NCBI GenBank assembly: GCA_964372345.1
Contig: CAYJQR010000013.1
Location: 1-29,816 of the forward strand
From: an uncultured Planctomycetia bacterium
GTDB lineage: Bacteria > Omnitrophota > Gorgyraeia > JACOVV01
Direction of reading: 5' to 3'
DNA: 29,816 nucleotides
Shown here: in pieces, positions 1 through 17,814 of the stretch
How positions within the stretch are numbered: the first letter of the stretch is position 1
Layout: each line of letters starts with the position of its first letter
Position numbers and translations under genes: made by a program
The notes under the pieces: generated by a model
The model's database searches: none
The model's input: only the letters and a program-made list of their open reading frames with translations
What the model was told of the DNA's origin: nothing

Positions 1-1
1 G

Positions 2-406
2 TTATTCTTCACCGCGCTGATTTTTGGGGCGATGCTCATCATTACTTTAGTGGAAAGCGCGAGAATCCCCGTGGATAACCCGGAAACACATCTAGAGTTG
101 ACGATGGTCCACGAAGCGATGATTCTGGAATATTCGGGGAGGTATCTGGCCCTGATCGAATGGAGTCATCAGATCAAACAGCTTTTGTTCTTCAGTTTAT
201 TGGCGAACCTTTTCTTCCCTTGGGGGATGGCTTTTTATGTTTTAAAAATTTTCTGTTTGGCTCTGGTGGCCGGCTGGATTGAAATCCACTCCGCCAAACT
301 GCGGTTGTTCCGGGCTCCGGATCTGATCGCGGTCGCCTTTGTTCTGGCGCTCCTTTCTCTGATGGGGCAGTTGATGATAGGGAGGCCGTCGTGGATGCCC
401 AACTGA
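2..406 (+). CDS. HycD/HyfC/NuoH-like membrane subunit of a group-4 hydrogenase-like complex (5'-truncated at window edge)
   Basis: Reading frame is open to the window start. C-terminal segment (ARIPVDNPETHLELTMVHEAMILEYSG...) matches the NuoH/HycD family. It overlaps the next gene by 16 nt, as expected for an operon. Confidence 0.65.
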   Translation, partial: LFFTALIFGAMLIITLVESARIPVDNPETHLELTMVHEAMILEYSGRYLALIEWSHQIKQLLFFSLLANLFFPWGMAFYVLKIFCLALVAGWIEIHSAKLRLFRAPDLIAVAFVLALLSLMGQLMIGRPSWMPN

Positions 407-1050
407 TTTCTTCCCTGATTCATCTGACAGGAATGCTTCTGCTCGCGGCAGCGCTGGCGATGATCGCGTCTCCTCAATTGTTCTCCTGCATCCGGTTGTA
501 CGCGGTTCATTCTCTCCTGCTGGCTTTAACAACGGGACTGATGGCCTGCCATCCCCATCTAGAGCACCTGTGGATCCCGGCGCTTTTAACTCTTCTGTTG
601 AAGACGGTGGTGATTCCCCGGGTTTTCTTCGGCATGATCCGCCGCATCGGTATCCGCCGGGAAGTAGAGAGTTACATCAATATCCCTTTTTCGTTAATCC
701 TGGCGGTGTTACTGCTCTTTCTCTCTTTTTACGGGACGGCCCATTTGTGGGAACTAAGTTCTATCGAGCAGAAAGAATTCATTCCGATGGCGATCGCGAC
801 CGTCTTCTGGGGGATGCTCATGATGGTGACCCGGAAAAAAGCGTTAACGCAAATCGTGGGGCTTCTGTTGATGGAAAACGGCCTTTTCCTGATGGCGGTC
901 ACCCTGACCTCCGGAATGCCTCTCTTGGTAGAGCTAGGCATTTTCTTCGACGTGCTGGTCGGCGTTATCATTATGGGGGTTTTTGTCTTTAAGATCCGGG
1001 ACGCGTTTGAAGGAATTGACGTGGATGACATGACGGTGTTGAAAGGATAA
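391..1050 (+). CDS. HyfE-like small membrane subunit (hydrogenase-4 component E family)
   Basis: 219 aa and hydrophobic. The C-terminus (...DVDDMTVLKG) and overall length mirror E. coli HyfE (...LTALKG). It sits between the HycD-like and antiporter-like genes as in hyf operons. Confidence 0.7.
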   Translation: MDAQLISSLIHLTGMLLLAAALAMIASPQLFSCIRLYAVHSLLLALTTGLMACHPHLEHLWIPALLTLLLKTVVIPRVFFGMIRRIGIRREVESYINIPFSLILAVLLLFLSFYGTAHLWELSSIEQKEFIPMAIATVFWGMLMMVTRKKALTQIVGLLLMENGLFLMAVTLTSGMPLLVELGIFFDVLVGVIIMGVFVFKIRDAFEGIDVDDMTVLKG

Positions 1051-1053
1051 AAA

Positions 1054-2520
1054 ATGTTTCTGCATTTGCTGATGATTCCATTGATAGCGGCGTTATTTTG
1101 CGAACTCTCCCCGGCGCCTTGGGTGAATTGCCTTTCTTTCATTGGAGGGGCGCTGGCGTTAGCGGTCAGCGGGTGGCATTCTGTTTTTTTTGCAAGCCTG
1201 CTTCAGGATAGAATTTTTGCTCTGGATGGAAAACTGCTGATGGACCCGCTGTCGGCGGTCTTCGTTCTCCTCATTGTCTCGCTGGGGATCTTATCGGCTG
1301 TTTACGCGGCGGGGTATCTTTTTGAAAAAAATTCTGGGGTTTCTTCTTTAAAACTCCGCCGTTATACCTGTTTCTTCCATCTTTTTCTTTTTACGATGCT
1401 GCTGACGGTCCTCTCTAATAATCTGGGGGTGATGTGGATTGCTATTGAGGGGACTACCCTGGCTTCCGCGTTTTTGGTGAATGTGGATGATAAAAAAAGT
1501 TCCATCGAAGCGGCGTGGAAATATTTAATCCTCTGCACGGTCGGGATCGCGCTGGCTCTCTTCGGCATTATTCTGGTGTATTATTCGGCCGTATCGGGAG
1601 CGGCGGGAGAGGGGAAAGATTCCCTAAATTGGACCTTTCTGTTAGAGCACGCGCGGCAGTTAAACCCAGAGGTGATGAAACTCGCTTTTATCTTTATTCT
1701 CGTCGGGTACGGGACCAAAGCGGGGTTGGCCCCTTTTCACTCATGGCTCCCGGACGCCCACAGTCAGGCCCCCAGTCCGGTGAGCGCGCTTCTATCCGGG
1801 GTATTGCTCAGCTGTGCCATGCTGGGGATCCTTCGGTTCCATCTCTTGACCCAGGCGGCGACCGGATCGCTTTTTTCATCGCATCTTCTTGTTTTCTTCG
1901 GTATTCTTTCTGTTGCTGTCGCAACCCCCTTCATTCTGGAGCAGGCCGATTACAAGCGGCTCTTCGCCTATTCCAGCGTCGAGCATATGGGGCTGGTCGC
2001 GGCCGGGATCGGATTCGGCAGTCCGTTGGCCGTTTACGGAGCAATCTTTCATGTCATCGTCCACGCTTTTAACAAATCGCTCCTCTTTTTTAGCTGCGGG
2101 CATCTCTTGCATCACTTTGAAACAAAAGAGATCAAAAAAGTAAAAGGGATTTTAAGAACACGGCCGTTTTTAGGAGTGGTCTTCTTTTTGGGGACAATGG
2201 CGATTACCGGGCTGCCTCCCTTCGGCACTTTTGTCAGTGAGTTCATGATCTTAAGCGGCGGGTTCACTGCCCACCGTTGGGTTGCCTGCGGGATTCTGCT
2301 TTTTCTGCTGGTATTTATTTTCGCCGGATTTTTGCGCCACTCAAGCCGCATGACATTCGGAAAGAGTTCATCGCCCGGCCGTTCGGCAAGGAATCTCTGG
2401 ATGGACGGAGTTTTGCTGATAGGAATTTTGTTGCTTCTAGTGATGGGGTTTTATCTGCCGAGCCCTTTGCATCAACTGATACAAAGAGCGAGTCTCATTG
2501 CTGGAGTGCCTTTCTCATGA
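1054..2520 (+). CDS. NuoL/M/N-family antiporter-like membrane subunit (HyfF/HyfB-like)
   Basis: 488 aa. Carries the Mrp/NuoL-M-N signature stretches WIAIEGTTLASAFLV and GTKAGLAPFHSWLPDAHSQAPSPVSALLSG. An AAAGGA Shine-Dalgarno sits 6 nt before the ATG. Confidence 0.8.
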   Translation: MFLHLLMIPLIAALFCELSPAPWVNCLSFIGGALALAVSGWHSVFFASLLQDRIFALDGKLLMDPLSAVFVLLIVSLGILSAVYAAGYLFEKNSGVSSLKLRRYTCFFHLFLFTMLLTVLSNNLGVMWIAIEGTTLASAFLVNVDDKKSSIEAAWKYLILCTVGIALALFGIILVYYSAVSGAAGEGKDSLNWTFLLEHARQLNPEVMKLAFIFILVGYGTKAGLAPFHSWLPDAHSQAPSPVSALLSGVLLSCAMLGILRFHLLTQAATGSLFSSHLLVFFGILSVAVATPFILEQADYKRLFAYSSVEHMGLVAAGIGFGSPLAVYGAIFHVIVHAFNKSLLFFSCGHLLHHFETKEIKKVKGILRTRPFLGVVFFLGTMAITGLPPFGTFVSEFMILSGGFTAHRWVACGILLFLLVFIFAGFLRHSSRMTFGKSSSPGRSARNLWMDGVLLIGILLLLVMGFYLPSPLHQLIQRASLIAGVPFS

Positions 2521-4031
2521 ATCCTTTACTGCATGGTTTATTAGAGAAATTAGGGGCCAACGTCAAAAAAAGCTGGGATCAGAACGATAAGGAATCGTGC
2601 CTGCTGGTTGACAAGAATCACACCGTCAGCGTTGTACAAGCGTTGACTCAAGGATTAGGGATGCGGTTTTTGTTTCTCTTTGCCAGCGATGAAAGAAGAG
2701 AGAAGGGATGCTTTTGCGTTCGATACCTGTTTTCCCATTCTCATCAAGACTGGTTTCTCAGGGTCGAAGTCGAAATCCCAGAGAGTGAACCTCGCTTCCC
2801 TTCTCTGACGCCGATATTGCCGCAGGCGGATTGGATGGAGCGAGAAATTCAGGATCTCTACGGACTTACCCCGGAGGGGCATCCTGATCCGCGCCGGCTC
2901 GTCTTCCATGGAAAAGAGGGAGAATATCACTTTGACCGGGTTGAAGGGGAAGGGGTTTTTGAGATCCCGGTAGGGCCTGTCCACGCGGGAATCATTGAAC
3001 CGGGGCATTTCCGCTTTTCCTCCGCGGGTGAAAGTATTATCAAACTTGAAATCCGGCATTTTTATACTCATAAAGGAACTGAGAAGCTCGGGGAAGGCAA
3101 GAGCGCTGACCCTCTGTTGTGTCTAGCGGAGCGAATCTCAGGAGACAACTCTCTGGCCCACGCGACGGCATGCGCTCAAGGATTAGAAACTCTCTGCGGC
3201 CTTCAGGCGCCGCCGCGCGCTCATCTTCTGCGCGTGATTTTCCTTGAAATGGAACGGGTGTATAACCATTTGGGAGACATTTCTGGTATTGCCTTGGATG
3301 TGGCCTTTGGTTTCGGCGCCGCGCAGTTGGCAAGAATTAAAGAGCGAGTGATGCGCCTCAATGAACGCCTCACCGGCAGCCGTTTGCTTCGTTCCGTGGT
3401 TGTCGTTGGCGGCGTCCGGAGAGACCTTTCTAAGAGTGAGCAGGCGTTTCTTCTCGATGAACTGAAACGAATCAAACAAGATTTTGACAGCGTCATTCAA
3501 TTTCTATGGAGCGTCAGTTCCTTGATGGATCGAATCCATGGAACCGGCGTCATAGAAAAAGAGATCGCCGAAGTTTTAGGGGCTGTCGGCCCCGTCGGCA
3601 GGGCCTCAGGAATTGACCGTGACCTCCGGCGGGAACATTCTTACGCCGCCTACCAGAACCTCTTCTTTATGGTCCCTGTTTTCCCTGAAGGAGACGTGGA
3701 GAGCCGCGTACGGGTGAGAGTGCAGGAGATTTATGAGTCCTTTAAACTAATTCAGGAAGCGGTGGAAGCGCTTCCCCAGACTCCTTGTCGTGTTCCTGCT
3801 GGAGAGTTACCGCCAAACCAAAGCGCTCTTGGGTATGTTGAGTCGCCGCGCGGCGCCTGTTTCCATTGGATCCAGACCGATTCTAGAGGAAAGATTGCCC
3901 GATGGAAAATTCATTCTCCCTCTTTTGCCAATTGGCGGCTGATTGAGTACGCGGTCCTTGGGAACATTATTCCGGATTTTCCGTTGATTAATAAAAGCAT
4001 GAACCTTTCTTACTCCGGAAACGATAGATGA
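2517..4031 (+). CDS. Fused NuoC-NuoD / HycE-type 'large subunit' lacking the Ni-Fe cysteine ligands (Ehr-like)
   Basis: The ATG overlaps the upstream stop (ATGA). The N-terminal third is NuoC-like and the remainder is NuoD/HycE-like (YHFDRVEGEGVFEIPVGPVHAGIIEPGHFRF). Positions equivalent to the RxCGxCxxxH and C-terminal DPCxxCxxH/R motifs read ERISGDNSLAH and ...KSMNLSYSGNDR, with no cysteine. Confidence 0.8.
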   Translation: MNPLLHGLLEKLGANVKKSWDQNDKESCLLVDKNHTVSVVQALTQGLGMRFLFLFASDERREKGCFCVRYLFSHSHQDWFLRVEVEIPESEPRFPSLTPILPQADWMEREIQDLYGLTPEGHPDPRRLVFHGKEGEYHFDRVEGEGVFEIPVGPVHAGIIEPGHFRFSSAGESIIKLEIRHFYTHKGTEKLGEGKSADPLLCLAERISGDNSLAHATACAQGLETLCGLQAPPRAHLLRVIFLEMERVYNHLGDISGIALDVAFGFGAAQLARIKERVMRLNERLTGSRLLRSVVVVGGVRRDLSKSEQAFLLDELKRIKQDFDSVIQFLWSVSSLMDRIHGTGVIEKEIAEVLGAVGPVGRASGIDRDLRREHSYAAYQNLFFMVPVFPEGDVESRVRVRVQEIYESFKLIQEAVEALPQTPCRVPAGELPPNQSALGYVESPRGACFHWIQTDSRGKIARWKIHSPSFANWRLIEYAVLGNIIPDFPLINKSMNLSYSGNDR

Positions 4032-4077
4032 GTAGATTACTTTGTCATTCCGACCGAAGTGACAGCAGGAGGAAACA

Positions 4078-4947
4078 GTGTTTCGGTTAATTCAAAAAAA
4101 CGCGCAGGTCGGGAAAGTGACACTTCCGTATGTCCCGGAAAAGACGCCGCCGCCGGAGGGGTTCATGGGAGCGCCGGAGATTGATCCGGCAAAATGCACC
4201 GGCTGCGGCAAGTGCGTGCCGGTTTGCCCTACCGACGCCCTGGCCATCGAAGATAAACCAGCCGAGAATCAAAGAATTTTCTTTCTCTCTTACGGAGATT
4301 GCATTTTCTGTGGCTTATGCGAACCGGCCTGCCCTTATCAGGCGGTCTCGTTTAAAGGAAAGTTTGAATTGGCCACGCAGGATAAGAAGGCCTTGAGCTT
4401 AGAATTCCCTTTTCAGCTGTCGCAATGCGCTAAAGATTCTGCTTTTATGCCGCGAGAAGCCCTTCCCATCAAAGAAAAACCGAGTACCACGCGGGAATTG
4501 GATAAAATGGGTGGACTTCTCAACGCCAAAATCAAAAAACTCTTTGGCCGTTCTCTGCATATCCGCGAAGTGGACGCCGGTTCCTGCAATGGGTGTGAGG
4601 TTGAAATCACAAATTTGTCCAATCCCATCTACGACGTCGAACGCTTCGGCATTCATTTTGTCGCCTCCCCCCGGCATGCCGACATGTTGCTGGTTACAGG
4701 GCCTGTTACCCGGCAGATGGAACTGGCGTTAGTAAAAACTTTCGAGGCAGCACCCGCGCCAAAATTAGTGGTCGCCTGCGGAGGGTGTGCTATCGGTGGA
4801 GGGATATTTAAGGGAAGCTACGCGGTTGTTGGAGGGGTTGACCGCGTTATTCCTGTGGATTGTTATATCCCCGGCTGTCCACCGCGGCCGGAAGCGATCC
4901 TGCATGGAATCTTTGTCGCCTTGGGTAAGTTGGCAAAAAAGGGTTGA
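4078..4947 (+). CDS. Fusion of 2x[4Fe-4S] ferredoxin (HycF/NuoI-like) and hydrogenase small subunit (HycG/NuoB-like)
   Basis: GTG start with an AGGAGG Shine-Dalgarno 6 nt upstream. Two ferredoxin CxxCxxCxxxCP motifs are present (CTGCGKCVPVCP, CIFCGLCEPACP). They are followed by the small-subunit cluster motifs GSCNGCE, ACGGCAIGGG and CYIPGCPP. Confidence 0.8.
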   Translation: MFRLIQKNAQVGKVTLPYVPEKTPPPEGFMGAPEIDPAKCTGCGKCVPVCPTDALAIEDKPAENQRIFFLSYGDCIFCGLCEPACPYQAVSFKGKFELATQDKKALSLEFPFQLSQCAKDSAFMPREALPIKEKPSTTRELDKMGGLLNAKIKKLFGRSLHIREVDAGSCNGCEVEITNLSNPIYDVERFGIHFVASPRHADMLLVTGPVTRQMELALVKTFEAAPAPKLVVACGGCAIGGGIFKGSYAVVGGVDRVIPVDCYIPGCPPRPEAILHGIFVALGKLAKKG

Positions 4948-5002: not shown

Positions 5003-5236
5003 ATGGCTTACGACAGCACGCTTGACGCGCAATTGTTCTCAAAGTCCTGGGAGGCCGAAGAAACCCGGCTGATTGTCAGTGTCTATTCCTATAATAAAGG
5101 GGCTAAGAAACTGCAGATCTCCAGGGAAACAAAAGATAACGAAGGGAATTTCCGGTTCGCCAAACTCGGACGGTTGACCAAAGAAGAGGCGGAGGCGATC
5201 CTTCCTTCCATCCAGGAAGCAGTCACGCATTTATGA
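5003..5236 (+). CDS. PC4/YdbC-like small ssDNA-binding protein (77 aa)
   Basis: Strong AAGGAGG Shine-Dalgarno. From memory, the sequence SKSWEAEETRLIVSVYSYNKGAKKLQISRETKDNEGNFRFAKLGRLTKEEAEA fits the bacterial PC4-like (YdbC) pattern. Confidence 0.5.
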   Translation: MAYDSTLDAQLFSKSWEAEETRLIVSVYSYNKGAKKLQISRETKDNEGNFRFAKLGRLTKEEAEAILPSIQEAVTHL

Positions 5237-5249
5237 CTCCCGCGAAAAC

Positions 5250-6518
5250 ATGACGATTGAATTGACTTTTGATTCGCTCAAACTTCACCCAAATCTGCTC
5301 AAGGGAATTCACAATATGGGCTACCTGCGCCCGACCCCGATTCAAGCGCAGGCGATTCCGGCTATTATTGATGGACGGGACGTCATCGGCTGTGCCCAGA
5401 CCGGGACAGGGAAAACCGCGGCTTTCGTTTTACCGATTCTGAACCGGCTCCTTCAGGGGCAAAGCCGCAAAAACGTCCGCACCCTCATTGTGACGCCGAC
5501 CCGTGAGCTGGCTCTGCAGGTGATGGAACATTTGCGAGACCTCTCTAAGTTCGTCCACTTAAAAGGGGCGGCCATTTTTGGAGGAGTCCCGATGTCGCCG
5601 CAGATCAGCGCTCTTGCCAGAGGAGTAGACATTATCTCCGCGACTCCCGGCCGGCTTCTCGACCACATTTATTCAGGACGGATTGACTTTGCCGACCTGG
5701 AGGTTTTTGTGCTGGATGAGGTAGACCGGATGCTGGACATGGGATTTCTCCCAGACATCCAAAAAATCATTCGTCTATTGCCTCCCAAACGCCAGACTCT
5801 TGTCTTCTCCGCGACGCTCCCGCCGGAAATTCGGACTCTTGTTGATAGGATACTCACCAATCCTGTCACGATTCAGATCGGCCAGCGTTCCAGTACCCCA
5901 GTCGGCATCCGGCACGCCATCTATCCGGTCCCGCGACATCTGAAAACAGATCTACTGGCACAGCTCTTAAGAGGACAGGGGATGACGTCGGTTCTCGTCT
6001 TCACCCGGACAAAGCACTACGCGGATCGTCTGGCCCAAACGCTGCTAAAGAGGGGATTAAGAGTTTCAGTCATGCACGGAGACCGCAGTCAGAGCCAGCG
6101 ATTGCATGCCATGGAGGAATTTCGCCGAGGCCGCAACCAGATTATGGTCGCCACCGACGTCGCCGCTCGCGGGATTGACATTGACGACATCAGCCATGTC
6201 GTTAACTTCGACATTCCCGACACACCCGAAAACTACATCCATCGAATCGGCCGAACCGCCCGCGCCGAAGCGACCGGGGACGCTTTTACCCTTGTCGCAC
6301 CCGATGAAGAAGAGATGGTGAAAGAAATCGAAAAAATGTTGAAACAATCGCTCCCGCGCGTGACGCTTCCGGATTTTGATTACAAGAAATCAGCTCCCCC
6401 CAGACAACACGGCCTCTCCGCGCCCCGCGGCAGAGGATCTTTCTCTCATTCGCAACGCCACCACTCAGGGCCGCCCCGCCGGCAGGGACAAGGCCACCGC
6501 CGCCCCCGTTTCGGCTGA
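5250..6518 (+). CDS. DEAD-box ATP-dependent RNA helicase (RhlE-like, with Arg/Gly-rich basic C-terminal tail)
   Basis: Helicase motifs are present: Q-motif region, AQTGTGKT (I), PTRELA (Ia), DEVD (II), SAT (III) and HRIGRTAR (VI). The C-terminus is R/G/H/P-rich. Confidence 0.9.
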   Translation: MTIELTFDSLKLHPNLLKGIHNMGYLRPTPIQAQAIPAIIDGRDVIGCAQTGTGKTAAFVLPILNRLLQGQSRKNVRTLIVTPTRELALQVMEHLRDLSKFVHLKGAAIFGGVPMSPQISALARGVDIISATPGRLLDHIYSGRIDFADLEVFVLDEVDRMLDMGFLPDIQKIIRLLPPKRQTLVFSATLPPEIRTLVDRILTNPVTIQIGQRSSTPVGIRHAIYPVPRHLKTDLLAQLLRGQGMTSVLVFTRTKHYADRLAQTLLKRGLRVSVMHGDRSQSQRLHAMEEFRRGRNQIMVATDVAARGIDIDDISHVVNFDIPDTPENYIHRIGRTARAEATGDAFTLVAPDEEEMVKEIEKMLKQSLPRVTLPDFDYKKSAPPRQHGLSAPRGRGSFSHSQRHHSGPPRRQGQGHRRPRFG

Positions 6519-6894: not shown

Positions 6895-7137
6895 ATGCAT
6901 TATGTTTACATTCTTCTCAATGAATCAAAAACAAGAACATATACCGGCGTCGCCAGAGATGTTGAGAAAAGACTACAAGATCATAATGACGGTAAAGTCA
7001 ACTCGTCCCGTCCATATCGTCCTTATCAGATCATTCACACCGAATCATTTGAAACATTGAGTGAAGCTCGACAAAAAGAGAAATTCTATAAATCAACAAC
7101 TGGCCGCAGAAGGTTGAAAGAAATCCTTTTTCGGTGA
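6895..7137 (+). CDS. GIY-YIG domain nuclease family protein (80 aa, YhbQ-like)
   Basis: N-terminal HYVYILLNESKTRTYTGVARDVEKRLQDHN fits the GIY-YIG signature (YxYIL...Y.G.T.dl.rR...H). It lies next to a tRNA at the island edge. Confidence 0.7.
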   Translation: MHYVYILLNESKTRTYTGVARDVEKRLQDHNDGKVNSSRPYRPYQIIHTESFETLSEARQKEKFYKSTTGRRRLKEILFR

Positions 7138-7205
7138 ATCCTTTTCAGTCTCGATCTCTGAACCCCCTTCCTTTTATTCCTCAAAAGGTATATATTAAAT
7201 GTTAA

Positions 7206-7451
7206 ATGCCGAAGATTCGATCCATGAAAACAGCCATAGACCCCAAAAAACTAGGCAAAAAGATCAAGCTGGCCCGGGTGGAGCAGGACCTGACCCAAAC
7301 CCAACTGGCCGACCTCATCCAGGCCAAGCAAAAGAGCATTTCCCGGTATGAAGGTGGCTTGTCCATGCCATCCGTAGAGACCCTGGTCAAAATCGCTAAG
7401 ACTCTTAGAAAACCTACGGCTTACTTCTTGGAAGATGAGGGAAAGGTATGA
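7206..7451 (+). CDS. XRE-family helix-turn-helix transcriptional regulator (possible controller of the adjacent Mrr cassette)
   Basis: LTQTQLADLIQAKQKSISRYEGG is a Cro/C1-type HTH. A TATATT box lies upstream. The true start may be the second ATG at 7224. Confidence 0.7.
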   Translation: MPKIRSMKTAIDPKKLGKKIKLARVEQDLTQTQLADLIQAKQKSISRYEGGLSMPSVETLVKIAKTLRKPTAYFLEDEGKV

Positions 7452-7454
7452 AAG
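7372..7454 (+). repeat. Direct repeat copy A (3' end of the XRE gene)
   Basis: About 80 bp, roughly 88% identical to 9312..9392 (ccgtagagaccctggtcaaaatcgctaagactcttagaaaacctacggcttacttcttggaagatgag...). Confidence 0.7.
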
Positions 7455-7506
7455 CTAATCAGTATTATTTCGGTTGTCGTTAGTCGTTAACGAAGAAAGG
7501 ATATAC

Positions 7507-8424
7507 ATGGCAATACCAGATTTCCAATCAACCATGCTTCCACTGCTTCATTTTACAGCCGATGGGAGCGAACGGTCATCTCGAGAAGCAATCGAAGGGT
7601 TAGCTGAAAAATTCGGGCTTACGGATGCCGAAAGAAAAGAACTGTTGCCAAGTGGACAGCAATTTACTTTTGATAATCGGCTTAATTGGGCTCGAACCTA
7701 TATGAGCAAAGCCGGCCTGTTGGAACCGACACAACGCGGGTATTTCCGGATAACTCAACGTGGCAAGGAAGTACTTGCGAAAAATCCCTCTACGATTAAT
7801 GTAAAGTTTCTAGAACAATTCCCTGAGTTCATAGAATTCAGAACTAAACACCGAGAACAAAAAGAAACTAAAGCAGCGATCGAAACGGAAACCCTCCAAA
7901 CACCTGCCGAATTGCTTGAAACTGCGTATCAGAAACTTCACGAAGATCTGTCTGCCGAGCTTCTGAAGAACGTGAAGGAAGAATGTTCTCCTACTTTTTT
8001 TGAACGTCTTGTTATCGACCTTTTGGTAAAAATGGGCTATGGCGGCAACCGAAAGGAAGCAGGGAAAGCCATTGGACGGAGCGGCGATGAAGGAATTGAC
8101 GGAATCATCAACGAAGATCGTCTTGGGCTTGATGTCATCTACATTCAGGCGAAGCGATGGCAGGCGCCGGTCGGGCGTCCAGAAATTCAAAAATTCGCCG
8201 GCGCCCTACAAGGACATCGCGCAAAGAAAGGTATCTTTATCACAACTTCTGCCTTTACCAAAGAAGCCGAGGATTATGTCGCGAAAATCGATTCGAAGAT
8301 TGTCCTAATAGACGGCGAACAACTCGCTCAGTTCATGATTGATCACAACATTGGAGTAACTTCGGTTGCCTCATATGAAACCAAGAGGATCGACTCCGAT
8401 TACTTTGCCGAAGGGGCGGCGTAA
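7507..8424 (+). CDS. mrr: Mrr-family type IV (modification-dependent) restriction endonuclease
   Basis: N-terminal winged helix (MAIPDFQSTMLPLL...). Mrr catalytic core LVIDLLVKMGYGG...GRSGDEGIDGI...DVIYIQAKRW. A GAAAGGA Shine-Dalgarno sits 6 nt before ATG 7507. The in-frame upstream TTG at 7474 was rejected. Confidence 0.85.
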   Translation: MAIPDFQSTMLPLLHFTADGSERSSREAIEGLAEKFGLTDAERKELLPSGQQFTFDNRLNWARTYMSKAGLLEPTQRGYFRITQRGKEVLAKNPSTINVKFLEQFPEFIEFRTKHREQKETKAAIETETLQTPAELLETAYQKLHEDLSAELLKNVKEECSPTFFERLVIDLLVKMGYGGNRKEAGKAIGRSGDEGIDGIINEDRLGLDVIYIQAKRWQAPVGRPEIQKFAGALQGHRAKKGIFITTSAFTKEAEDYVAKIDSKIVLIDGEQLAQFMIDHNIGVTSVASYETKRIDSDYFAEGAA

Positions 8425-8457
8425 CATCCGCGTACTGAAAAGAGAAAGCCATAGAAA

Positions 8458-9222
8458 ATGTCTCAATACTACAACGCCAAACGGTCTAGAAATCTTTTTG
8501 ATCCAGAATCACGTGAACCATTCAGATTAAGCCGGACGAAAATTGAATTATTCATCGGTTGTCCGCGTTGTTTTTACCTTGATCGGCGACTAGGAATAGA
8601 TCGTCCTCCCGGCTTCCCATTTAATTTAAACTCGGCAGTAGACACCCTTCTCAAAAAAGAATTTGATCTCTATCGCGCCAAAGGGACTGCCCATCCCTTC
8701 ATGAAAACCTATGGAGTGGATGCTGTCCCTTTTCAGCACGAGAAAATCGAAGAATGGCGGGATGCTCGCAAACGAGGGATTACTTATTTACACCAACCTA
8801 CAAATCTTCTCATCACAGGCGGAGTGGATGACGTATGGATTAACCCTGACAGGGAATTAATCATTGTTGATTACAAAAGCACCTCAAAGAATGGAGAAGT
8901 AGACATAGGCGCCGATTGGCAGATGTCTTACAAGAGGCAAATGGAAGTCTACCAATGGCTGTTTAGGCGAAACAATTTCAAAGTCTCATCAACCGGATAT
9001 TTTGTGTATTGCAACGGGATTACAGATAAAGAATCCTTTAACAATAAACTGGAATTTAATATCAAGCTGATTCCTTACGAGGCAAATGACGCTTGGGTTG
9101 AGGAAACGATCCACGACATCCACAAATGTCTGTTGAGCCACAATATCCCTGATCTGGAAGAGGAATGCGATTATTGCCAGTATTATGATGCGCTGAGATC
9201 AGCAGATGTTTTGGTAAAATGA
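8458..9222 (+). CDS. Cas4/RecB-like PD-(D/E)XK nuclease with four-cysteine cluster
   Basis: The IIVDYKS stretch looks like a (D/E)xK core. Flanking CPRC (N-terminal) and CDYC (C-terminal) pairs resemble the Fe-S ligation pattern of Cas4/AddB-type nucleases. It lies 33 nt downstream of mrr. Confidence 0.65.
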   Translation: MSQYYNAKRSRNLFDPESREPFRLSRTKIELFIGCPRCFYLDRRLGIDRPPGFPFNLNSAVDTLLKKEFDLYRAKGTAHPFMKTYGVDAVPFQHEKIEEWRDARKRGITYLHQPTNLLITGGVDDVWINPDRELIIVDYKSTSKNGEVDIGADWQMSYKRQMEVYQWLFRRNNFKVSSTGYFVYCNGITDKESFNNKLEFNIKLIPYEANDAWVEETIHDIHKCLLSHNIPDLEEECDYCQYYDALRSADVLVK

Positions 9223-9269
9223 TTGATCTATGTGAAAAGGCTGGCTTTGGCCGAGAGACACCAAAATAG

Positions 9270-9392
9270 GAAGCGCTATCAAATATTTCTGAGTGCGGAT
9301 TATTCATAACACCCATAGAGTCCCTAGTCAAAATCGCTAAGACTCTTAAAAAACCCACGGCTTACTTCTTGGAGGATGAAAGAAATGAAAGG
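9270..9392 (+). pseudogene. Start-less 3' fragment of an XRE regulator gene (repeat copy B, displaced gene end)
   Basis: In frame it reads ...ITPIESLVKIAKTLKKPTAYFLEDERNERT*, compared with the intact XRE C-terminus SVETLVKIAKTLRKPTAYFLEDEGKV*. There is no start codon. DNA identity to 7372..7454 is about 88%. Confidence 0.55.
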
Positions 9393-9497
9393 ACATAAAG
9401 TTTAATCAGCTCGAATCGGTAAAAACGTTCTATTATACGTTTATTTGAAGACTTCCAAAGGGGCCGATTTGGGGGTGGAATTGATTTTCTCCAAGAG

Positions 9498-10748
9498 ATG
9501 GTGAAAGTTGGGAAGGCAATCCCGTCGGAGGACGAAGTGAGGAATCTTGAGTTACCAGGAGAAGGTCAATATAAACTGCCAAACGACACCGAGGTTTCCA
9601 ATGAGCTATTGCCGGATCTCCAAGAGAGTGAAGAACGCCAACGGTATTTAAAATTGGCATTAGCACTTCCAATCTCTGAAATATTATTTTCGGTGAGATC
9701 AAAAAATTGTTTAAAAAATCTAAGGATACAACATTTGAAAGATTTAGTTTTGTTGAGCAGAGATCAAATTTTATCCCAGAAGAATGCCGGGAAAAGAAGC
9801 CTAAAGGAGATGAGCGATTTCTTAAATCAGTTGGAACTCGATTTAGGAATGAATTTAACGTCCTCATTATTGAAAGCTATAGAATGGCAGATAAAGAGCG
9901 TTCGGGATCCCGAAAAGCTGATGGAGGATTTTCGTAATTCCTACCCTGAAAAAACCATTGTACTAAAAGAAGTCCGAATCCAAACCATTAAGCCTGAACG
10001 GATGGAATTTTATAAGCCTTGTTTTGAATTATACACGCATGGCGGGACGCTTCAATCTGTTGCTATGGCCATGAAATTGACGCGTGAAAGAATCCGACAG
10101 ATTTTGATAAAGGGGACTGCGTATAAGTTATTCGAGTATAATGGCCGTGAATATCCATATATTTTAAAAGCAAAACTACTTTCAGATTTGAGCAAATACC
10201 CAAGCATGAGTACGGTTTCCAAAATTAATAAAATATCAACGGTATATTTAAAAAGATTACTTCTTGCTTATCACATTACGTCTGAGCAAATGGAGGAATT
10301 TAAGGAAAGGTCCCGGAAGCAACAAGCTATAGAAGATTTCAACGCTGTGAGAGATCAACTTGGCCATAACCCAACGACAACGGAGTTGCAAGCAAATGGG
10401 GAATGGAGGTCTCTTGGAAATAGAATTAGACGGAATTGGGGTAATTTTCAAGAATTTCGGCAAGCGTTAAATATTCCGCCACCACCACCATTTGCTGAAG
10501 TAACCAAACGGTGGATCGAACACAGATCTCGTTTGGCTCTGATTCGGAGAATGCAAGATTTGGATTCAGTTAGAGATTGTCTCGAGAAGTTGGGACCCCT
10601 AAATACATCCGAAATTGCTAGGCGATGCCAATTGAAATCGATGAGAGCGTTTAAATTAACACAACTGCTCTTGGCAACGGGAGAAGTGTCACGTGACGGC
10701 GTGGGAAGCCAGACCAAATACAGAATAAGTAAGATCGGAGGGAGATAA
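9498..10748 (+). CDS. Multi-HTH DNA-binding protein: RNAP alpha-CTD-like domain + sigma-70 region-4-like HTH + HNH-associated-repeat-like motif
   Basis: LFSVRSKNCLKNLRIQHLKDLVLLSRDQILSQKNAGKRSLKEMSDFLNQLELDLGMNL parallels RpoA alpha-CTD ([57 protein letters not shown]). GGTLQSVAMAMKLTRERIRQI resembles sigma-70 region 4. LGHNPTTTELQANGEWRSLGNRIRRNWGNFQEF resembles the GRxPT...FGSW repeat. Its stop abuts the next gene's start. Confidence 0.6.
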   Translation: MVKVGKAIPSEDEVRNLELPGEGQYKLPNDTEVSNELLPDLQESEERQRYLKLALALPISEILFSVRSKNCLKNLRIQHLKDLVLLSRDQILSQKNAGKRSLKEMSDFLNQLELDLGMNLTSSLLKAIEWQIKSVRDPEKLMEDFRNSYPEKTIVLKEVRIQTIKPERMEFYKPCFELYTHGGTLQSVAMAMKLTRERIRQILIKGTAYKLFEYNGREYPYILKAKLLSDLSKYPSMSTVSKINKISTVYLKRLLLAYHITSEQMEEFKERSRKQQAIEDFNAVRDQLGHNPTTTELQANGEWRSLGNRIRRNWGNFQEFRQALNIPPPPPFAEVTKRWIEHRSRLALIRRMQDLDSVRDCLEKLGPLNTSEIARRCQLKSMRAFKLTQLLLATGEVSRDGVGSQTKYRISKIGGR

Positions 10749-12434
10749 ATGAAGATAATTACAAAAACGAAACTGCAAATCAAAGATCAGGGCGAGTTGC
10801 TAAACCAAATTGCAGGCACCTATAAAGACTTTTTTAGAGCGGCTATGGAGTACATCGATAATTCGGTTGATGCGGCTACCGGATTACAGCAAGATGGGAA
10901 GAAATTTTCTGCCAAAATTCATATAGAAGTCGACCCTGACAAGAAGACAGTCTCTTTTGCTGATAACTGTGGGGGAATGTCGCCTCAGGAATTGTGCGAG
11001 TTATTATCAAATGTGGGCCGGTCTAGAAAAAAGGCAGTTTCTTGGGCTAATGGACAATTTGGATTTGGCGTTCACGCCTTTAGAGCTTTTGCTAGGGAAG
11101 CTATTTTTATAAGTCGGAAGAAGAATTGTAAAGAAGCAATGATAAAGATAGATCGCACAGTCCATGAAAACCAAGATGTCCCATGTGTAGAAACGGATGT
11201 GAAACAGCTTAAGGAGCCGGGAACGCGGGTTATTATTTCTCGATTTGATTCACATGTTTTTCAAAAGGCCACTTTCGTCAAAACTTTAGCCGCTGAAGTC
11301 GAACATCATTTCGACGATGTCTTGAGGGCTAAATTAGCACGTATCTCTATTTCTGAGAAAGATAAAAGATCGCACGAATGTTCCCATTTCGATTTCGACT
11401 CGCTACCAGGTCCTGTTTTGAAAAAAACTTTTTCTTTGATGTCTGATGGAAAACAAAGCGAAATTGAAGTTGATTTAAAGGTTTTAGATCGTGTTCAAGA
11501 TAACAGATTCCCTGTTCTCACAAATAAATGTCGACGAGTTCAAAATATTTCTGATTTGAAAAGCTATAAAAACTTTTTGAGAACAAAGGGAGAGATAAGT
11601 TACATATGGAACAACCCTTTTGTGGTTGGCTCCATTGAAATTAACGGTTTTTGCTCTCCAAATTTAACCAGAGACGACTTAAAGGATTTAAAAGAACGCG
11701 AGCAACTGTACGAAAAGATATGCGAAGTACAGAATGATCTGAAGCACTTGATTGATGAAACGATGGATAAAAAAACTAGGGAATCATTTCGAAGAATTGG
11801 AAGTATAATGTCGGATTGCCTGGCTCAAATACTTAAAAATTTTAAGCTTGAATTCGAACAATTAGCTCCTTCAGGCATTACCGGGAATCTTGCGGAACAT
11901 ATTGAAGAAGGAAACGGGAAAATACCATTCGGCGGTGACGATGAGCCGGGTGGCGGTGGACCAGGTCCAAATGAAGAAGGTTCGGGGGGTAGACGATCTG
12001 ACGAAGGCAGATCAGGTGTTGGTAAAGATGAAAAAGGTGGCGGAGCTAATGATAAAAGAAAAACTTCTGGCCAAGGAGGAGCATCGACGGAAAAAATTAT
12101 TCAATCGCCTGGACCCAGGATCGAATTTCAAAATCATGCCGGAGAAGACAGAGTTATCGATTTAGGAAACTCCCTTATCGTCAACACACAGCATTCGGAT
12201 TTCATATTAAGGAATCCACGATCAACAGGTAAGATCAAATTCGACGTTAGGTTATTGAATTACGTCTCTCAAGTTGTGTCTCCATATTGTGTCCACAGAC
12301 TATTCGAGCGTAAAGGAAAAGTACCGTCCGTATCAGAAGTTGGGGCAAATGTAATTAATCTAAGTTTGAATCTCGAAAAAGAGTTGCTTAAAACCGTTTT
12401 GGGGACAGAAATAGATACAATGGTATATGCCTGA
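10749..12434 (+). CDS. GHKL (Bergerat-fold, MORC/MutL-like) ATPase with Gly-rich low-complexity segment
   Basis: N-box EYIDNSVDA, G1 box DNCGGM and G2 box GQFGFGVHA are present. A GGAGGGA Shine-Dalgarno precedes the ATG. Residues about 395-450 form a G/D/E/K-rich disordered stretch. Confidence 0.8.
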   Translation: MKIITKTKLQIKDQGELLNQIAGTYKDFFRAAMEYIDNSVDAATGLQQDGKKFSAKIHIEVDPDKKTVSFADNCGGMSPQELCELLSNVGRSRKKAVSWANGQFGFGVHAFRAFAREAIFISRKKNCKEAMIKIDRTVHENQDVPCVETDVKQLKEPGTRVIISRFDSHVFQKATFVKTLAAEVEHHFDDVLRAKLARISISEKDKRSHECSHFDFDSLPGPVLKKTFSLMSDGKQSEIEVDLKVLDRVQDNRFPVLTNKCRRVQNISDLKSYKNFLRTKGEISYIWNNPFVVGSIEINGFCSPNLTRDDLKDLKEREQLYEKICEVQNDLKHLIDETMDKKTRESFRRIGSIMSDCLAQILKNFKLEFEQLAPSGITGNLAEHIEEGNGKIPFGGDDEPGGGGPGPNEEGSGGRRSDEGRSGVGKDEKGGGANDKRKTSGQGGASTEKIIQSPGPRIEFQNHAGEDRVIDLGNSLIVNTQHSDFILRNPRSTGKIKFDVRLLNYVSQVVSPYCVHRLFERKGKVPSVSEVGANVINLSLNLEKELLKTVLGTEIDTMVYA

Positions 12435-13321
12435 TGAAAGCTAATGTTCAGACTATAATTAAAGCGATATCGGATTCAAATAATAGATATCGGGATTCCT
12501 CCTCAGATACAAGAACCAAGCTTGAAGCTCTGTGGAATATTGGAGATTGTCTTGTGCGGCTTGGCGTAAATAAGCCGCATTCGATGGGATGGATCGTACA
12601 AAAAGAGACAAAAGGTCTCATTAAGAGGCCAACAATATTTCGAAGTTTCAAAATTCGTCAAATATGGAACTCAAAGGACGATCTTCTGCGTGATATCGGG
12701 AATATTAAAGGGGTCAACTTCTTGATAGACATGTTGCCGTTAATCGATCCTCGGCAAGAAGTTCGAAAGAAGCTTAAGGAAGATGAAATTAAACAAATCT
12801 ATAAGAAGGCATGTGCTAGTTCTGTGGGTCAATTCAAAAGTTATATTGTAGAATTGAAAACTAAATATTCTCACGATAGGCTTGGCAAACGGCTAGATAA
12901 GTCGAAACACTTGGTAGAAATAGAATTTGTAACTAAGAATTTCGGCTCATTGCAACGTTTTCTTCTAGGTCTCATCCAGCAAAAGGAAAGTACTGGGCGT
13001 GATAGATTCAGACAAGAAATCAAGCGTGAGGAATTTCGCGCTTTTTCCAATATGTGTATTTCCCTAACGACCAAAAACAATATCCGTTTATATAAGAAGG
13101 CAGGGGTTTCTCTTTCGAATACAGAGAATCAGCAGTTTAAAGTTTTGTACGATTATTTTTACTCAATTCTCAATAAAGCAGCTGACACGGAACGCGCAAG
13201 AGTTCGTCGCTTGATTTCTCCAGAAGCTTTTGCGCAAATGTCTGATATTATCTCTTCGATTCAAAATGAAGAAAGTTTAGACGACTTTAGACTTAGACAA
13301 CAATTATCAATAGGGCTGTGA
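12434..13321 (+). CDS. Hypothetical protein (295 aa), candidate effector/nuclease partner of the GHKL-Dam operon
   Basis: The start overlaps the upstream stop by 1 nt (TGATG) and the stop lies 1 nt before the methyltransferase start. No family motif was recognised. Confidence 0.6.
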   Translation: MKANVQTIIKAISDSNNRYRDSSSDTRTKLEALWNIGDCLVRLGVNKPHSMGWIVQKETKGLIKRPTIFRSFKIRQIWNSKDDLLRDIGNIKGVNFLIDMLPLIDPRQEVRKKLKEDEIKQIYKKACASSVGQFKSYIVELKTKYSHDRLGKRLDKSKHLVEIEFVTKNFGSLQRFLLGLIQQKESTGRDRFRQEIKREEFRAFSNMCISLTTKNNIRLYKKAGVSLSNTENQQFKVLYDYFYSILNKAADTERARVRRLISPEAFAQMSDIISSIQNEESLDDFRLRQQLSIGL

Positions 13322-13322
13322 C

Positions 13323-14222
13323 ATGCAACCATTTCTAAAATGGGCTGGTGGAAAACGTTGGCTGATCCCCAAGATTAAAGACAGCATCCCTCCGTTCAGA
13401 ACTTATTTTGAACCATTCTTAGGAAGTGCCGCCCTGTTCTTTGCATTGGAACCTAAGTCGGCAATTTTATCGGACACCAATCCGGAACTCATAGGTTGTT
13501 ACAGAGTTATCAAGAACCATTGTGAGTCTATGATCAAAGTATTAGAGAGATTAAAGATTACAAAATCGGATTATTACGCAATTCGAGAAAAATTTAATAG
13601 TGGGAACGAACCAATTAAGAAAGCAGCATACTTCATTTATCTGAACAAAACTTGCTGGAATGGTCTTTACCGCGTGAATAACCACGGCAAATTTAACGTG
13701 CCAGTCGGTACGCACCTTCAGCGTGGGTATAAGGTCTTCGACGCGGATCATTTGAAGAATGCTAGTCGTCTTTTAAATCGGGCCATAATTAAACGGTGCG
13801 ACTTTGAAGAAGCAACAAAGGATGCTAGAAACAAAGATCTCGTATACTTTGATCCTCCTTATATAACAACGCATTTAAAGAATGGTTTTATCAAATATAA
13901 CTCCGTCTTATTTCACCAGTCTGATGAATTGCGATTGGCAAAAGTGGCGGAAAAACTGGCTAAGCGTAGAATTCAAGTAATTCTAAGTAATGCCGCTCAC
14001 CCACTAATAAAACAACAATATAACGGATGTTTTTACAAAACGGAAATATTACGGCCTAGCCTAATTGCTGGGGATCCCTCGAAAAGGACAAGGTTTCTTG
14101 AGCTTCTTGTTACTAGTTTTCCACTGACTATAGAGACCAGAGAATATTCGGAGCGCCAAGATGAAGCTATTCCTAAAGATGTACGGTATAAGCCTTTTTA
14201 TAATCCAAAGTGTAAATTTTGA
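13323..14222 (+). CDS. Dam-family (D12 class, alpha-group) N6-adenine DNA methyltransferase
   Basis: N-terminal LKWAGGKRWLIPKI...FEPFLGSAALFF matches the AdoMet motif. The catalytic motif IV is VYFDPPYITT, compared with E. coli Dam VYCDPPYAPL. Confidence 0.85.
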   Translation: MQPFLKWAGGKRWLIPKIKDSIPPFRTYFEPFLGSAALFFALEPKSAILSDTNPELIGCYRVIKNHCESMIKVLERLKITKSDYYAIREKFNSGNEPIKKAAYFIYLNKTCWNGLYRVNNHGKFNVPVGTHLQRGYKVFDADHLKNASRLLNRAIIKRCDFEEATKDARNKDLVYFDPPYITTHLKNGFIKYNSVLFHQSDELRLAKVAEKLAKRRIQVILSNAAHPLIKQQYNGCFYKTEILRPSLIAGDPSKRTRFLELLVTSFPLTIETREYSERQDEAIPKDVRYKPFYNPKCKF

Positions 14223-14309
14223 AGACTGCGCGTAAATATGGGATCGAGTTTGGGCATTGGACAGAGTAGGAAATAGAGACGGTTCTTGTTTTTGACCGCG
14301 AAGTGATAA

Positions 14310-14537
14310 AATAAAAACCGCCCCTATTTATTATCGAAGAATTCGCCATCCGCCAAAGGGCAGGATGAAATCGTTGGATTCGTTAAAAAGCGGCTGGAAC
14401 TCGGAAGAGCGGCTGAAGGAAAAACTCCCGAAATTGAGGAGATTGAGCGGGCCATCAACGTTGCTGTTTATCGCCTTTACAGCCTCACAAAAGAAGAAAT
14501 TACCATCGTAGAACAGTGTGGGGTGAAAGATAAATAG
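14310..14537 (+). pseudogene. C-terminal remnant of a type IIG/Eco57I-like (gamma-class N6-MTase-containing) restriction-modification enzyme
   Basis: A start-less ~75-codon frame ends ...KTPEIEEIERAINVAVYRLYSLTKEEITIVEQCGVKDK*. That is the characteristic ...ID.lVy.LYgLTeEEI.iVE C-terminal helix of Eco57I/PglX/TaqI-type enzymes. An in-frame stop lies immediately upstream. Confidence 0.4.
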
Positions 14538-14539
14538 TT

Positions 14540-15127
14540 ATGGATATTAATGATATCCAAGAGCTGCATTTTATTACGGATATAAAGAATGTTGATTCGA
14601 TTATGCGAGAAGGTATTCTGTCGCATAACAAGGCGGGTAGAATTCCTCATCGCTCGATTGCGGAGCAGGGTGTTCAAGAGCGCAGGCAAAATAAAAAAAT
14701 TCCCGGCACAAACAAACGTTTGCATGATTATACAAATCTGTATTTCAATGCCCATAATCCCATGCTTAGTGCGAGAAGGCAGCTGAATGATTCGATTTGC
14801 GTCTTGCGCATCAATAAACATGTTTTGTCTATAGAAGGGGTTATCATCACAGATCAAAATGCAAGCAGGGATTGTTGGTTCAAGCCGGTATCCGAGGGAT
14901 TACCATTACTGAAGCATGAAGAGATTTTTGCTGAATTTTGGATCAATAGAGAAGATCCAATGGAAGAATATCGATTGAAGGGCATAAAATGCGCTGAAGT
15001 CTTAGTGCCAAAGTGCGTTCATCCATCACACATTTTATCGGCATACGTAGCCAATAATACTGCGCTGAGCGATTTTAAAAAGGCGTCGACTTTATCTGTG
15101 CAAATTAATGGGAATTTGTTTTTCTAA
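14540..15127 (+). CDS. darT: DarT, ssDNA thymidine ADP-ribosyltransferase toxin (DUF4433)
   Basis: LHFITDIKNVDSIMREGILSHN...RSIAEQGVQERRQNKKIP...LHDYTNLYFNAHNPMLSA...CAEVLVPKCVHPSHI follows the DarT pattern (hFTHi.NL.sIL, HDYVPFYF, catalytic-Glu EvLV). A macrodomain gene lies directly downstream. Confidence 0.7.
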   Translation: MDINDIQELHFITDIKNVDSIMREGILSHNKAGRIPHRSIAEQGVQERRQNKKIPGTNKRLHDYTNLYFNAHNPMLSARRQLNDSICVLRINKHVLSIEGVIITDQNASRDCWFKPVSEGLPLLKHEEIFAEFWINREDPMEEYRLKGIKCAEVLVPKCVHPSHILSAYVANNTALSDFKKASTLSVQINGNLFF

Positions 15128-15138
15128 AGGGGGGTATC

Positions 15139-17776: not shown

Positions 17777-17814
17777 TGGGAGGAGTAACATAATAGTTAG
17801 GGGGAAAATTGCTA

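Follow-up and report, generated by a model that had tools for sequence, protein, structure and literature searches.

The stretch of DNA analysed here, the window, comprises 29,816 nucleotides (nt) from an uncultured member of Candidatus Omnitrophota, and its first genes, at positions 2-4947 of the + strand, very probably make up the 3′ five-sixths of an ehrABCDLS operon, which encodes the six-subunit, membrane-bound energy-converting hydrogenase-related (Ehr) complex. The large subunit, EhrL, aligns from end to end with that of a group-4 [NiFe] hydrogenase and has other residues at the four cysteine positions that would bind the Ni-Fe site. Since all four ligands are gone, the complex, as judged from the encoded protein, cannot be a [NiFe] hydrogenase. 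The replaced site reads as one under purifying selection in a conserved family, not as a product of decay. Ehr complexes have been described as relatives of the group-4 hydrogenases that lack the Ni-Fe ligands and whose function is unknown (PMC6349859, PMC7304191, PMC10284858, PMC10432482), and the locus is an ordinary further member of this large, already described and functionally unsolved family.

Five co-directional genes are found in this part of the window, the first of which is cut by the window start. Their families were assigned by Pfam and NCBIfam profiles.

2..406, + strand: ehrB, 3′ part, encoding the C-terminal 134 amino acids (aa) of a NuoH/HycD-like membrane subunit (PF00146, E 1.6e-12)
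391..1050, + strand: ehrC, HyfE-like membrane subunit, 219 aa (NF008556 'hydrogenase 4 membrane subunit', E 4.5e-27, full-length; PF00420, weak)
1054..2520, + strand: ehrD, HyfF/NuoM-type antiporter-like subunit, 488 aa (NF005044, hydrogenase 4 subunit F, E 3.7e-142, below cutoff; PF00361, E 1e-58)
2517..4031, + strand: ehrL, NuoC-like plus NuoD/HycE-like large subunit, 504 aa, without Ni-Fe ligands (PF00329, PF00346)
2604..2909, + strand: NuoC/HycE-N-terminal-like domain of EhrL, aa 30-131 (PF00329, E 2.4e-23; aligns to HycE 24-149)
4078..4947, + strand: ehrS, 289 aa, a HycF/NuoI-type 2x[4Fe-4S] ferredoxin domain (aa 1-119; NF009053, E 3.5e-27) fused to a NuoB/HycG-type small subunit (aa ~150-289; NF005012, E 2.4e-42, aa 171-280; PF01058, aa 170-282)

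Successive genes are joined by a 16-nt overlap, a 3-nt gap, an ATGA overlap and a 46-nt gap, and these tight junctions point to a single operon. The start of ehrB lies upstream of the window; full-length relatives have 314-316 aa, and locus L003 lengthens the fragment to 235 aa. The NuoD/HycE-like domain of EhrL covers aa 149-504 (PF00346, E 1.1e-47), and the true start of its gene is the ATG at 2517, which overlaps the ehrD stop codon and at which all homologues begin; the list of open reading frames (ORFs) had used a TTG at 2277. Among solved structures, EhrS matches MbhJ (6cfw_J, 1.9e-45), HycG (7z0s_G, 6.2e-44) and residues 1-118 of HycF (7z0s_F). A scan for terminators and promoters 3′ of ehrS returned nothing above chance.

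The positions of the four cysteines were assigned by aligning EhrL with HMMER, end to end, to HycE of E. coli (7z0s_E; E 6.5e-86). Two short stretches of EhrL stand opposite the ligand motifs of HycE.

3129..3161, + strand: former L1 motif, ERISGDNSLAH (aa 205-215; S208, G209, D210, N211, H215), in place of RxCGxCxxxH and opposite DRVCGICGFAH of HycE
4002..4028, + strand: former L2 motif, NLSYSGNDR (aa 496-504; S498, G501, D503), in place of DPCxxCxxR and opposite DPCYSCTDR of HycE

The first cysteine (C1) is replaced by S208, the second (C2) by N211, the third (C3) by S498 and the fourth (C4) by G501, and neither the L1 (RxCGxCxxxH) nor the L2 motif ([DE][PL]CxxCx[DE][RL]) of group-4 [NiFe] hydrogenases is found in the protein. 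The Pfam family NiFeSe_Hases matches it marginally, over aa 187-252 only. EhrL ends at R504, which aligns to the last residue of the HycE match, and it is without the C-terminal extension on which a HycI-type protease acts; the HycE-type representatives P0222, P0233 and P0242 carry ~25 or more extra C-terminal residues. The hydrogenase framework is retained, with the EPGHFR loop and its Glu161, the His215 of L1 and the Asp503 of L2. A model of EhrL made with AlphaFold has a HycE-like fold (predicted template modelling (TM) score, pTM, 0.80), its best fold match is 7z0s_E (TM 0.81), and no solved structure is nearer to EhrL than HycE by sequence or by fold. An error of frame, annotation or sequencing was considered as a source of the missing cysteines; it is ruled out by the end-to-end alignment and by the identical 504-aa protein in two independent assemblies (L003, L004).

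A working group-4 [NiFe] hydrogenase of the Hyf type or of the formate hydrogenlyase (FHL) type, which would make H2 from ferredoxin or formate, could explain why the gene order and the best family matches are those of hydrogenase 4 and FHL, why HycE is the closest solved protein, and why EhrL still has the EPGH proton-relay loop and ends in Asp-Arg. This explanation is refuted at the sequence level and its probability is practically nil, as the four ligands are replaced, the replacements are fixed across the clade, the NiFeSe_Hases match is marginal, and no hyp genes are found in the window or near its relatives.

Conservation of the replaced site was followed in two surveys. In the first, one genome per GTDB species was searched, which yielded at least 600 species-level loci of which the best 80 were examined; the second took the best 150 representatives of 50%-identity clusters drawn from 1.84 billion proteins. 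Residues at the Ni-Fe site were counted over 81 non-redundant species-level loci, 69 of which are cysteine-less and 12 of which have the four cysteines in CGxC...H and ELCY[AS]CxDR. Over the 69 cysteine-less relatives, the L1 region keeps S208 in 63, G209 in all and D210 in 65, with a variable position 211 (S, T, E, N); the L2 region keeps S498 and D503 in all and G501 in 67, and the EPGH loop keeps E161 in 64 and H164 in all. The residue between C1 and C2 is a gained one, as Asp stands there in 65/69 cysteine-less proteins and Val or Ala in the four-cysteine group. Among the 18 aligned closest homologues, SGDNS...H and LSYSGND are invariant. A Nitrospirota clade (L042, L051, L055, L059) has Thr or Val at the otherwise conserved Asp210.

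The 150 cluster representatives comprise 98 with none of the four cysteines, 27 with all four, 13 with some and 12 fragments. The first cysteine alone is kept (CGD... together with [SA]Y[AC]G...) in P0206, P0257, P0264-P0266, P0269, P0286, P0292 and P0294, and in locus L044; in these relatives the site may be an intermediate form or one with a different function. A rough neighbour-joining tree, built from the catalytic domain with HycE-type proteins as root and carrying no support values, assigns EhrL to a clade of 103 representatives of which not one has the full set of four cysteines; the state inferred at the root is four cysteines. An earlier, sequence-only reading of this DNA had taken Ehr as intermediate between Ech/FHL and complex I; the rough tree instead derives the cysteine-less clade from four-cysteine ancestors.

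The closest homologues of EhrL are 84-87% identical and belong to Candidatus Omnitrophota, followed by 525-aa Omnitrophota proteins at 58-66% identity and, at ~50%, by proteins of Candidatus Methanoperedens and ANME-2 archaea. The sub-clade of the window, which includes P0002-P0004, is 21 aa shorter in the linker between the NuoC- and NuoD-like parts, at aa 131-136 of EhrL (nt ~2910-2960); the missing stretch has the consensus EDWPxGxxPLRKDFxxxxKxPR and is kept in all other aligned Omnitrophota and archaeal relatives. A recent decay of a hydrogenase within Omnitrophota, to which the lengths of 504 and 525 aa might have pointed, is ruled out, as the 21-aa gap is this linker and the 525-aa relatives are cysteine-less too. 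Hosts among the best 80 loci include Acidobacteriota, Verrucomicrobiota, Methylomirabilota/Rokubacteria, Nitrospirota, Bacillota, Chloroflexota and others, as well as ammonia-oxidising Thaumarchaeota, Methanosarcinales, Methanomassiliicoccales, phyla of the Candidate Phyla Radiation (CPR) and Saganbacteria. The nearest relatives outside Omnitrophota are archaeal, not bacterial (Methanosarcinales, Methanoperedens, Methanomassiliicoccales; L005, L006, L010, P0061-P0120), which suggests that the ehr operon has been transferred between domains.

The residues of the iron-sulfur clusters are kept in full, as all 12 iron-sulfur cysteines are present in EhrS.

4195..4230, + strand: first CxxCxxCxxxCP motif, CTGCGKCVPVCP, aa 40-51 of EhrS (by motif and Fer4 families)
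4300..4335, + strand: second CxxCxxCxxxCP motif, CIFCGLCEPACP, aa 75-86 of EhrS (by motif and Fer4 families)
4579..4599, + strand: GSCNGCE, ligands 1 and 2 of the proximal [4Fe-4S] cluster (C170, C173), aligned to GSCNGCD of MbhJ and GGCNGCE of HycG
4774..4791, + strand: ACGGCA, third ligand of the proximal cluster (C237), aligned to the Cys of GAC in MbhJ and HycG
4870..4884, + strand: PGCPP, fourth ligand of the proximal cluster (C267), aligned to PGCPP of MbhJ, HycG and PSST of complex I

The HycF-like two-cluster domain and the NuoB-like one-cluster domain together form a wire of three clusters with intact ligands. In the membrane arm, EhrD has equivalents of E144, K234 and E407 of NuoM, the conservation of which was counted over 74 relatives: the Glu of transmembrane helix 5 (E144 equivalent) is found in 74/74 and the Lys of helix 7 (K234 equivalent) in 73/74, the position in helix 12 (E407 equivalent) is Glu in 65 and Lys in 9, and a His in helix 11 is invariant or nearly so. 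The equivalent of the central helix 8 lysine of NuoM, K265 (EhrD aa 253), is Ser in the window and Asn in 50/74 relatives, cysteine-less and four-cysteine alike.

These residues also bear on the idea that the operon is a decaying, non-functional remnant of a hydrogenase, which the loss of catalytic ligands, as in a dead enzyme, and the 21-aa linker deletion of the sub-clade might suggest. The five reading frames are intact and tightly coupled, the replacement residues are near-invariant across many phyla, neither the 12 iron-sulfur cysteines nor the charged residues of the membrane arm have been lost, and independent assemblies encode identical proteins; in Geobacter, Ehr subunits have been detected as proteins (PMC7894505). 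A remnant is thus extremely improbable.

The complete six-gene unit is found in three Omnitrophota relatives whose proteins are 60-65% identical (L001/L002, L085, L086). Its order is a NuoL/HyfB-like subunit of 673-676 aa, a NuoH-like one of 314-316 aa, a HyfE-like one of 219 aa, a HyfF-like one of 489-519 aa, the large subunit and the fused small subunit, and nothing else is conserved around the unit in these three. Almost all of the best 80 loci repeat this core order, and an archaeal relative (L087) has the same core. A 77-aa ORF without a Pfam match (5003-5236) lies between ehrS and a gene for a RhlE-type DEAD-box RNA helicase (5250-6518) and was called as a gene in L003 too. It was considered as a conserved extra Ehr subunit, which is ruled out, as it is unrelated to the 79-aa ORF 3′ of ehrS in L085. 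Two ehr operons stand in tandem in a Nitrospirota genome (L042; 4820-12160 and 12235-19889) and in a member of Fibrobacteria (L061).

Variation among the best 80 loci is concentrated in the small subunit, which may be a downstream fusion of ferredoxin and NuoB, as in the window, a pair of separate genes for the two, NuoB alone downstream, or NuoB alone upstream of ehrA. The fusion is found in 8/12 four-cysteine relatives, and every member of the family, like E. coli HycE, has the NuoC-like N-terminal domain. The sequence-only reading had presented the NuoC-NuoD and ferredoxin-small-subunit fusions as features of this locus; both are present and neither is specific to it, the first being universal and the second common in relatives with and without the four cysteines. 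It had also proposed linkage to hyp and hycI as a check. None of hyp, hycI and fdh was found in the window or within 10 kb of the operon in the three Omnitrophota relatives, and Pfam scans of flanking ORFs at the 12 four-cysteine loci showed no recurrence of hyp, hycI, fdh or nuoEF. The four-cysteine proteins also end at Arg without an extension for the HycI protease. As these relatives are unlinked to hyp and hycI as well, linkage cannot discriminate a hydrogenase from Ehr, and the check, though its expectation of no linked genes was borne out, is uninformative.

The same scans at 68 loci without the full four-cysteine set found no formate dehydrogenase or NuoEF, and only a weak recurrence of ArsR-type regulators (7/112 ORFs) and universal stress proteins (4/112). 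An association of Ehr with formate dehydrogenase (PMC6349859) was considered and is unsupported for this clade, no fdh having appeared in the flank scans. Universal stress protein genes directly adjoin the operon in the bacterial locus L085 (4034-4837) and in the archaeal locus L087 (12416-12847), and a gene with a PTS_EIIA_2 domain lies 3′ of the operon in two Omnitrophota relatives (L085, 12716-13213; L086, 12588-13052).

The assignment to Ehr, which the sequence-only reading had made together with the group-4-hydrogenase-like order of membrane, large and small subunits, the absence of the L1 and L2 cysteines, and the retained cluster ligands with their HycF/NuoI-type ferredoxin fusion, is borne out on each of these points: the gene families and coordinates agree, the profile alignment with HycE finds S, N, S and G, and the small subunit aligns with MbhJ, HycG and HycF. 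The locus shares with Ehr the cysteine-less large subunit, the small subunit with its iron-sulfur site, the six-gene order and the absence of dedicated maturation genes or fdh alongside, and it differs in its host phylum and in the linker of its sub-clade. Published hosts of Ehr include Margulisbacteria, Saganbacteria and Melainabacteria (PMC6349859), CPR (PMC7304191), Elusimicrobia (10.1101/765248), comammox Nitrospira (PMC10284858), ammonia-oxidising archaea (PMC10432482) and Geobacter (PMC7894505). Relatives from lineages with published Ehr, namely Nitrospira, ammonia-oxidising archaea, CPR and Saganbacteria, carry the same replacement motifs as EhrL. HydDB explicitly leaves Ehr out of the hydrogenases (PMC5037454), and a literature search found no description of Ehr in Omnitrophota.

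The four-cysteine relatives (Thermincola, Desulfotomaculum, Chloroflexota, Myxococcales), at 38-44% identity, resemble the window in the six-gene order, the NuoC-NuoD fusion, often the ferredoxin-NuoB fusion, and the same C-terminal end. They differ in having CGxC...H and ELCY[AS]CxDR, with Val or Ala at Asp210 and Glu at Asn496, and could in principle bind Ni-Fe. The EhrL of Desulfotomaculum ruminis has been reported to keep four cysteines (PMC3569383), and these relatives probably correspond to it and to group 4f of HydDB. FHL and hydrogenase 4 of E. coli share with the window the gene order hyfB-C-E-F-G-H-I without hyfA, D and J, the NuoC-like N-terminal domain and the EPGHFR loop; in contrast, the window is without Ni-Fe ligands and the extension cleaved by HycI, its HycF- and HycG-like parts are fused, and it has no HycB/HyfA or formate dehydrogenase partner.

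All five ehr products of the window are likewise homologous to core subunits of complex I (NuoB, C, D, H, I, K and the L/M/N module), which also lacks Ni-Fe cysteines. The differences are the absence of NuoA, J, E, F and G and the position of EhrL, which is closer to HycE than to any NuoD: the NuoD model NF004739 scores 214 bits against a cutoff of 360, the NuoB equivalog models are all below their cutoffs, and the NuoB subfamily model NF005012 alone passes (144 against 116). No NuoA- or NuoJ-type gene was found in the six-gene operons of L001/L002, L085 and L086. The MBS/Mbx and MBH complexes of Thermococcales are ferredoxin-dependent, ion-translocating and hydrogenase-derived, and the small-subunit half of EhrS finds its best solved match in MbhJ; they differ in having 13-14 subunits with an Mrp-type module, MBH retains Ni-Fe, and MbsL is more distant from EhrL than HycE is (9.3e-34 against 6.5e-86).

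A ferredoxin-driven ion pump is the mechanism proposed here for the complex of the window, tentatively and a little short of an even call. The peripheral module is built like that of FHL and Hyf: its large subunit resembles HycE, its small subunit resembles HycG and has one [4Fe-4S] site, and a domain akin to HycF has two. The Ni-Fe site has been exchanged for a conserved polar pocket of Ser208, Gly209, Asp210, Ser498, Gly501 and Asp503, with the EPGH loop (Glu161) kept. A low-potential soluble donor, most simply reduced ferredoxin, would dock on the HycF-like domain, and electrons would run along the three [4Fe-4S] clusters to the place where EhrL, EhrS and EhrB meet, at which a bound acceptor would be reduced and protonated. 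By analogy with MBH, FHL and complex I, the redox energy would then pass through the NuoH-like and HyfE-like subunits to the antiporter-like EhrA and EhrD, moving H+ or Na+. The acceptor would not be H+ and probably would not be bound as complex I binds quinone.

The strongest rival is the reduction of quinone by a binding mode other than that of complex I, and a minimal, complex-I-like ferredoxin:quinone oxidoreductase, reducing a membrane quinone where the large, small and NuoH-like subunits meet and so driving ion pumping, is doubtful though a serious candidate. All subunits are homologues of complex I subunits (NuoB, C, D, H, I, the NuoK-like part of HyfE, and NuoL/M/N-like), and NuoD families score well, though below cutoff. 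Quinone-based respiration is found in many hosts of the family, such as Acidobacteriota, Nitrospirota and ammonia-oxidising archaea. Pathways for quinones are present in some Omnitrophota (PMC10066038). Against this, no NuoA or NuoJ homologues are present in the operon, and in an ungapped alignment with Nqo4 of T. thermophilus (2fug_4), Tyr87 and His38, which we take to be the quinone head-group ligands of complex I, stand opposite Gly209 and Ile160, both invariant in the family. The same pocket is found in relatives from CPR and Saganbacteria, lineages reported or, as for CPR, generally regarded as being without quinone synthesis. Margulisbacteria have been reported to be without it (PMC6349859).

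Two further rivals do without quinone. In the first, a sulfur compound or other small soluble acceptor would be reduced at or near the proximal iron-sulfur cluster, as proposed for MBS (Mbx) of Pyrococcus, which is another hydrogenase-derived complex without Ni-Fe chemistry and has homologues of the window proteins (MbsL, 6u8y_L, 9.3e-34; MbsJ, 6u8y_J, 2.8e-26). This is very unlikely, as the MBS subunits are more distant than those of FHL and MBH, the operon has no Mrp-type small subunits, the proximal cluster has all four ligands so that no open iron site is evident, and no linked sulfur-metabolism genes appeared in the flank scans. In the second, there would be no external acceptor, and the complex would be a cation/proton antiporter of the Mrp kind with its iron-sulfur module serving only as a redox sensor or gate. 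The two antiporter-like subunits with conserved charged residues, the lack of a linked partner oxidoreductase, the sub-families without a ferredoxin domain, and recurrent neighbours limited to ArsR-type regulators and universal stress proteins, which hint at a role in stress or homeostasis, all fit this idea. It is nevertheless unlikely, as a three-cluster wire that ends at a conserved polar pocket with a proton-relay Glu exceeds what a sensor needs, and the neighbour signal is weak.

Several points weigh against the assignment to Ehr and against the ferredoxin-driven pump. The operon Geobacter sulfurreducens GSU0739-45 is ehrA-B-C-D-L-S (PMC7894505), and its likeness to the window, in six genes for NuoL-like, NuoH-like, HyfE-like and antiporter-like subunits followed by the large and small subunits, is one of published composition, not of EhrL sequence. 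Locus L032 is from the Nitrospira metagenome-assembled genome (MAG) QZM_B4_2_Bin429 and has the same motifs and clade, in a neighbour-joining tree without support values, as do relatives from ammonia-oxidising archaea, CPR and Saganbacteria; its MAG belongs to a comammox study that reports Ehr in 7/11 MAGs (PMC10284858), which may include this one. We infer ehrA upstream of the window from its position in complete relatives. The AlphaFold model of EhrL falls below 50 in its predicted local distance difference test (pLDDT) at residues 125-184 and 482-504, exactly at the pocket, and is uninformative on pocket geometry. Many family members have a NuoB-like small subunit without a ferredoxin domain, so docking on a HycF-like domain cannot be the universal electron entry. 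Donor, acceptor and ion of Ehr are all ones that we infer.

A more far-reaching version of the ferredoxin-driven pump is speculative and rather improbable. In it, the polar pocket would be a catalytic site of an undescribed kind, beside the intact proximal [4Fe-4S] cluster and the proton-relay Glu161, that reduces with ferredoxin an acceptor other than H+ and other than a quinone held in the manner of complex I; Ehr would be a main ion-pumping 'respiratory' enzyme in many uncultured lineages poor in quinones (Omnitrophota, CPR, Saganbacteria) and the real ferredoxin oxidiser behind the 'Ech hydrogenase' of Methanoperedens.

As to the latter, cysteine-less homologues of ~50% identity are found in Methanoperedens/ANME-2d, in the order A, B, C, D, L, ferredoxin, S (L087, 4912-12419; P0061, P0069, P0079, P0082, P0101, P0120). 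The published model of Methanoperedens lists as 'Ech hydrogenase' ANME2D_02724 and 02723, then, after two unlisted genes, 02720, 02719 and 02718, a spacing as in Ehr (PMC4683180, supplementary file 2), and HydDB gives M. nitroreducens group 3b hydrogenases only (PMC5037454). From this spacing, the cysteine-less homologues and the HydDB entry, the 'Ech' is probably an Ehr that would be unable to make H2; a cluster look-up of the homologues gave no locus tags.

By itself, the locus extends by one host phylum a family that was named about twenty years ago, first in Geobacter sulfurreducens, and has been noted in many metagenome papers; its founding papers are said to be those of Coppi in 2004/2005 and of Marreiros et al. 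in 2013. The family is very large (at least 600 species-level loci, with about 100 of the 150 best clusters cysteine-less). Its signature offers targets for mutation, namely the gained Asp in the middle of the old L1, the invariant Ser and Gly that took the places of C3 and C4, and the retained Glu161 and Asp503. Ehr operons are also easily mis-scored in genome surveys, which alters the hydrogen and respiratory metabolism inferred. Homologues of EhrL carry the NCBI name 'NADH-quinone oxidoreductase subunit C', and a survey of Omnitrophota counts 'respiratory complex I' by PF00346 (PMC10066038); in surveys based on this family, Ehr operons may be counted as complex I.

Downstream of the ehr genes, positions 6895-18336 of the window have a GC content of 39-44%, against 50-53% on either side, and are dense in genes of defence and mobile elements, so that the stretch looks like a horizontally acquired defence island. 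The following features lie in it.

6895-7137: GIY-YIG
7206-7451: HTH_3
7474-8424: Mrr restriction endonuclease
8458-9222: PD-(D/E)XK nuclease
9498-10748: protein with an RNA polymerase alpha C-terminal domain
10749-12434: HATPase_c_3 protein
12434-13321 and 16562-17776: two ORFs without a family
13323-14222: D12 adenine methyltransferase
14540-15127: DarT, single-stranded DNA thymidine ADP-ribosyltransferase, adjoining the macro-domain protein
15139-16251: macro-domain protein, adjoining DarT
17809-18336: RNase T-like exonuclease

The two adjoining genes at 14540-16251 have, by their predicted products, the layout of a DarTG toxin-antitoxin pair.

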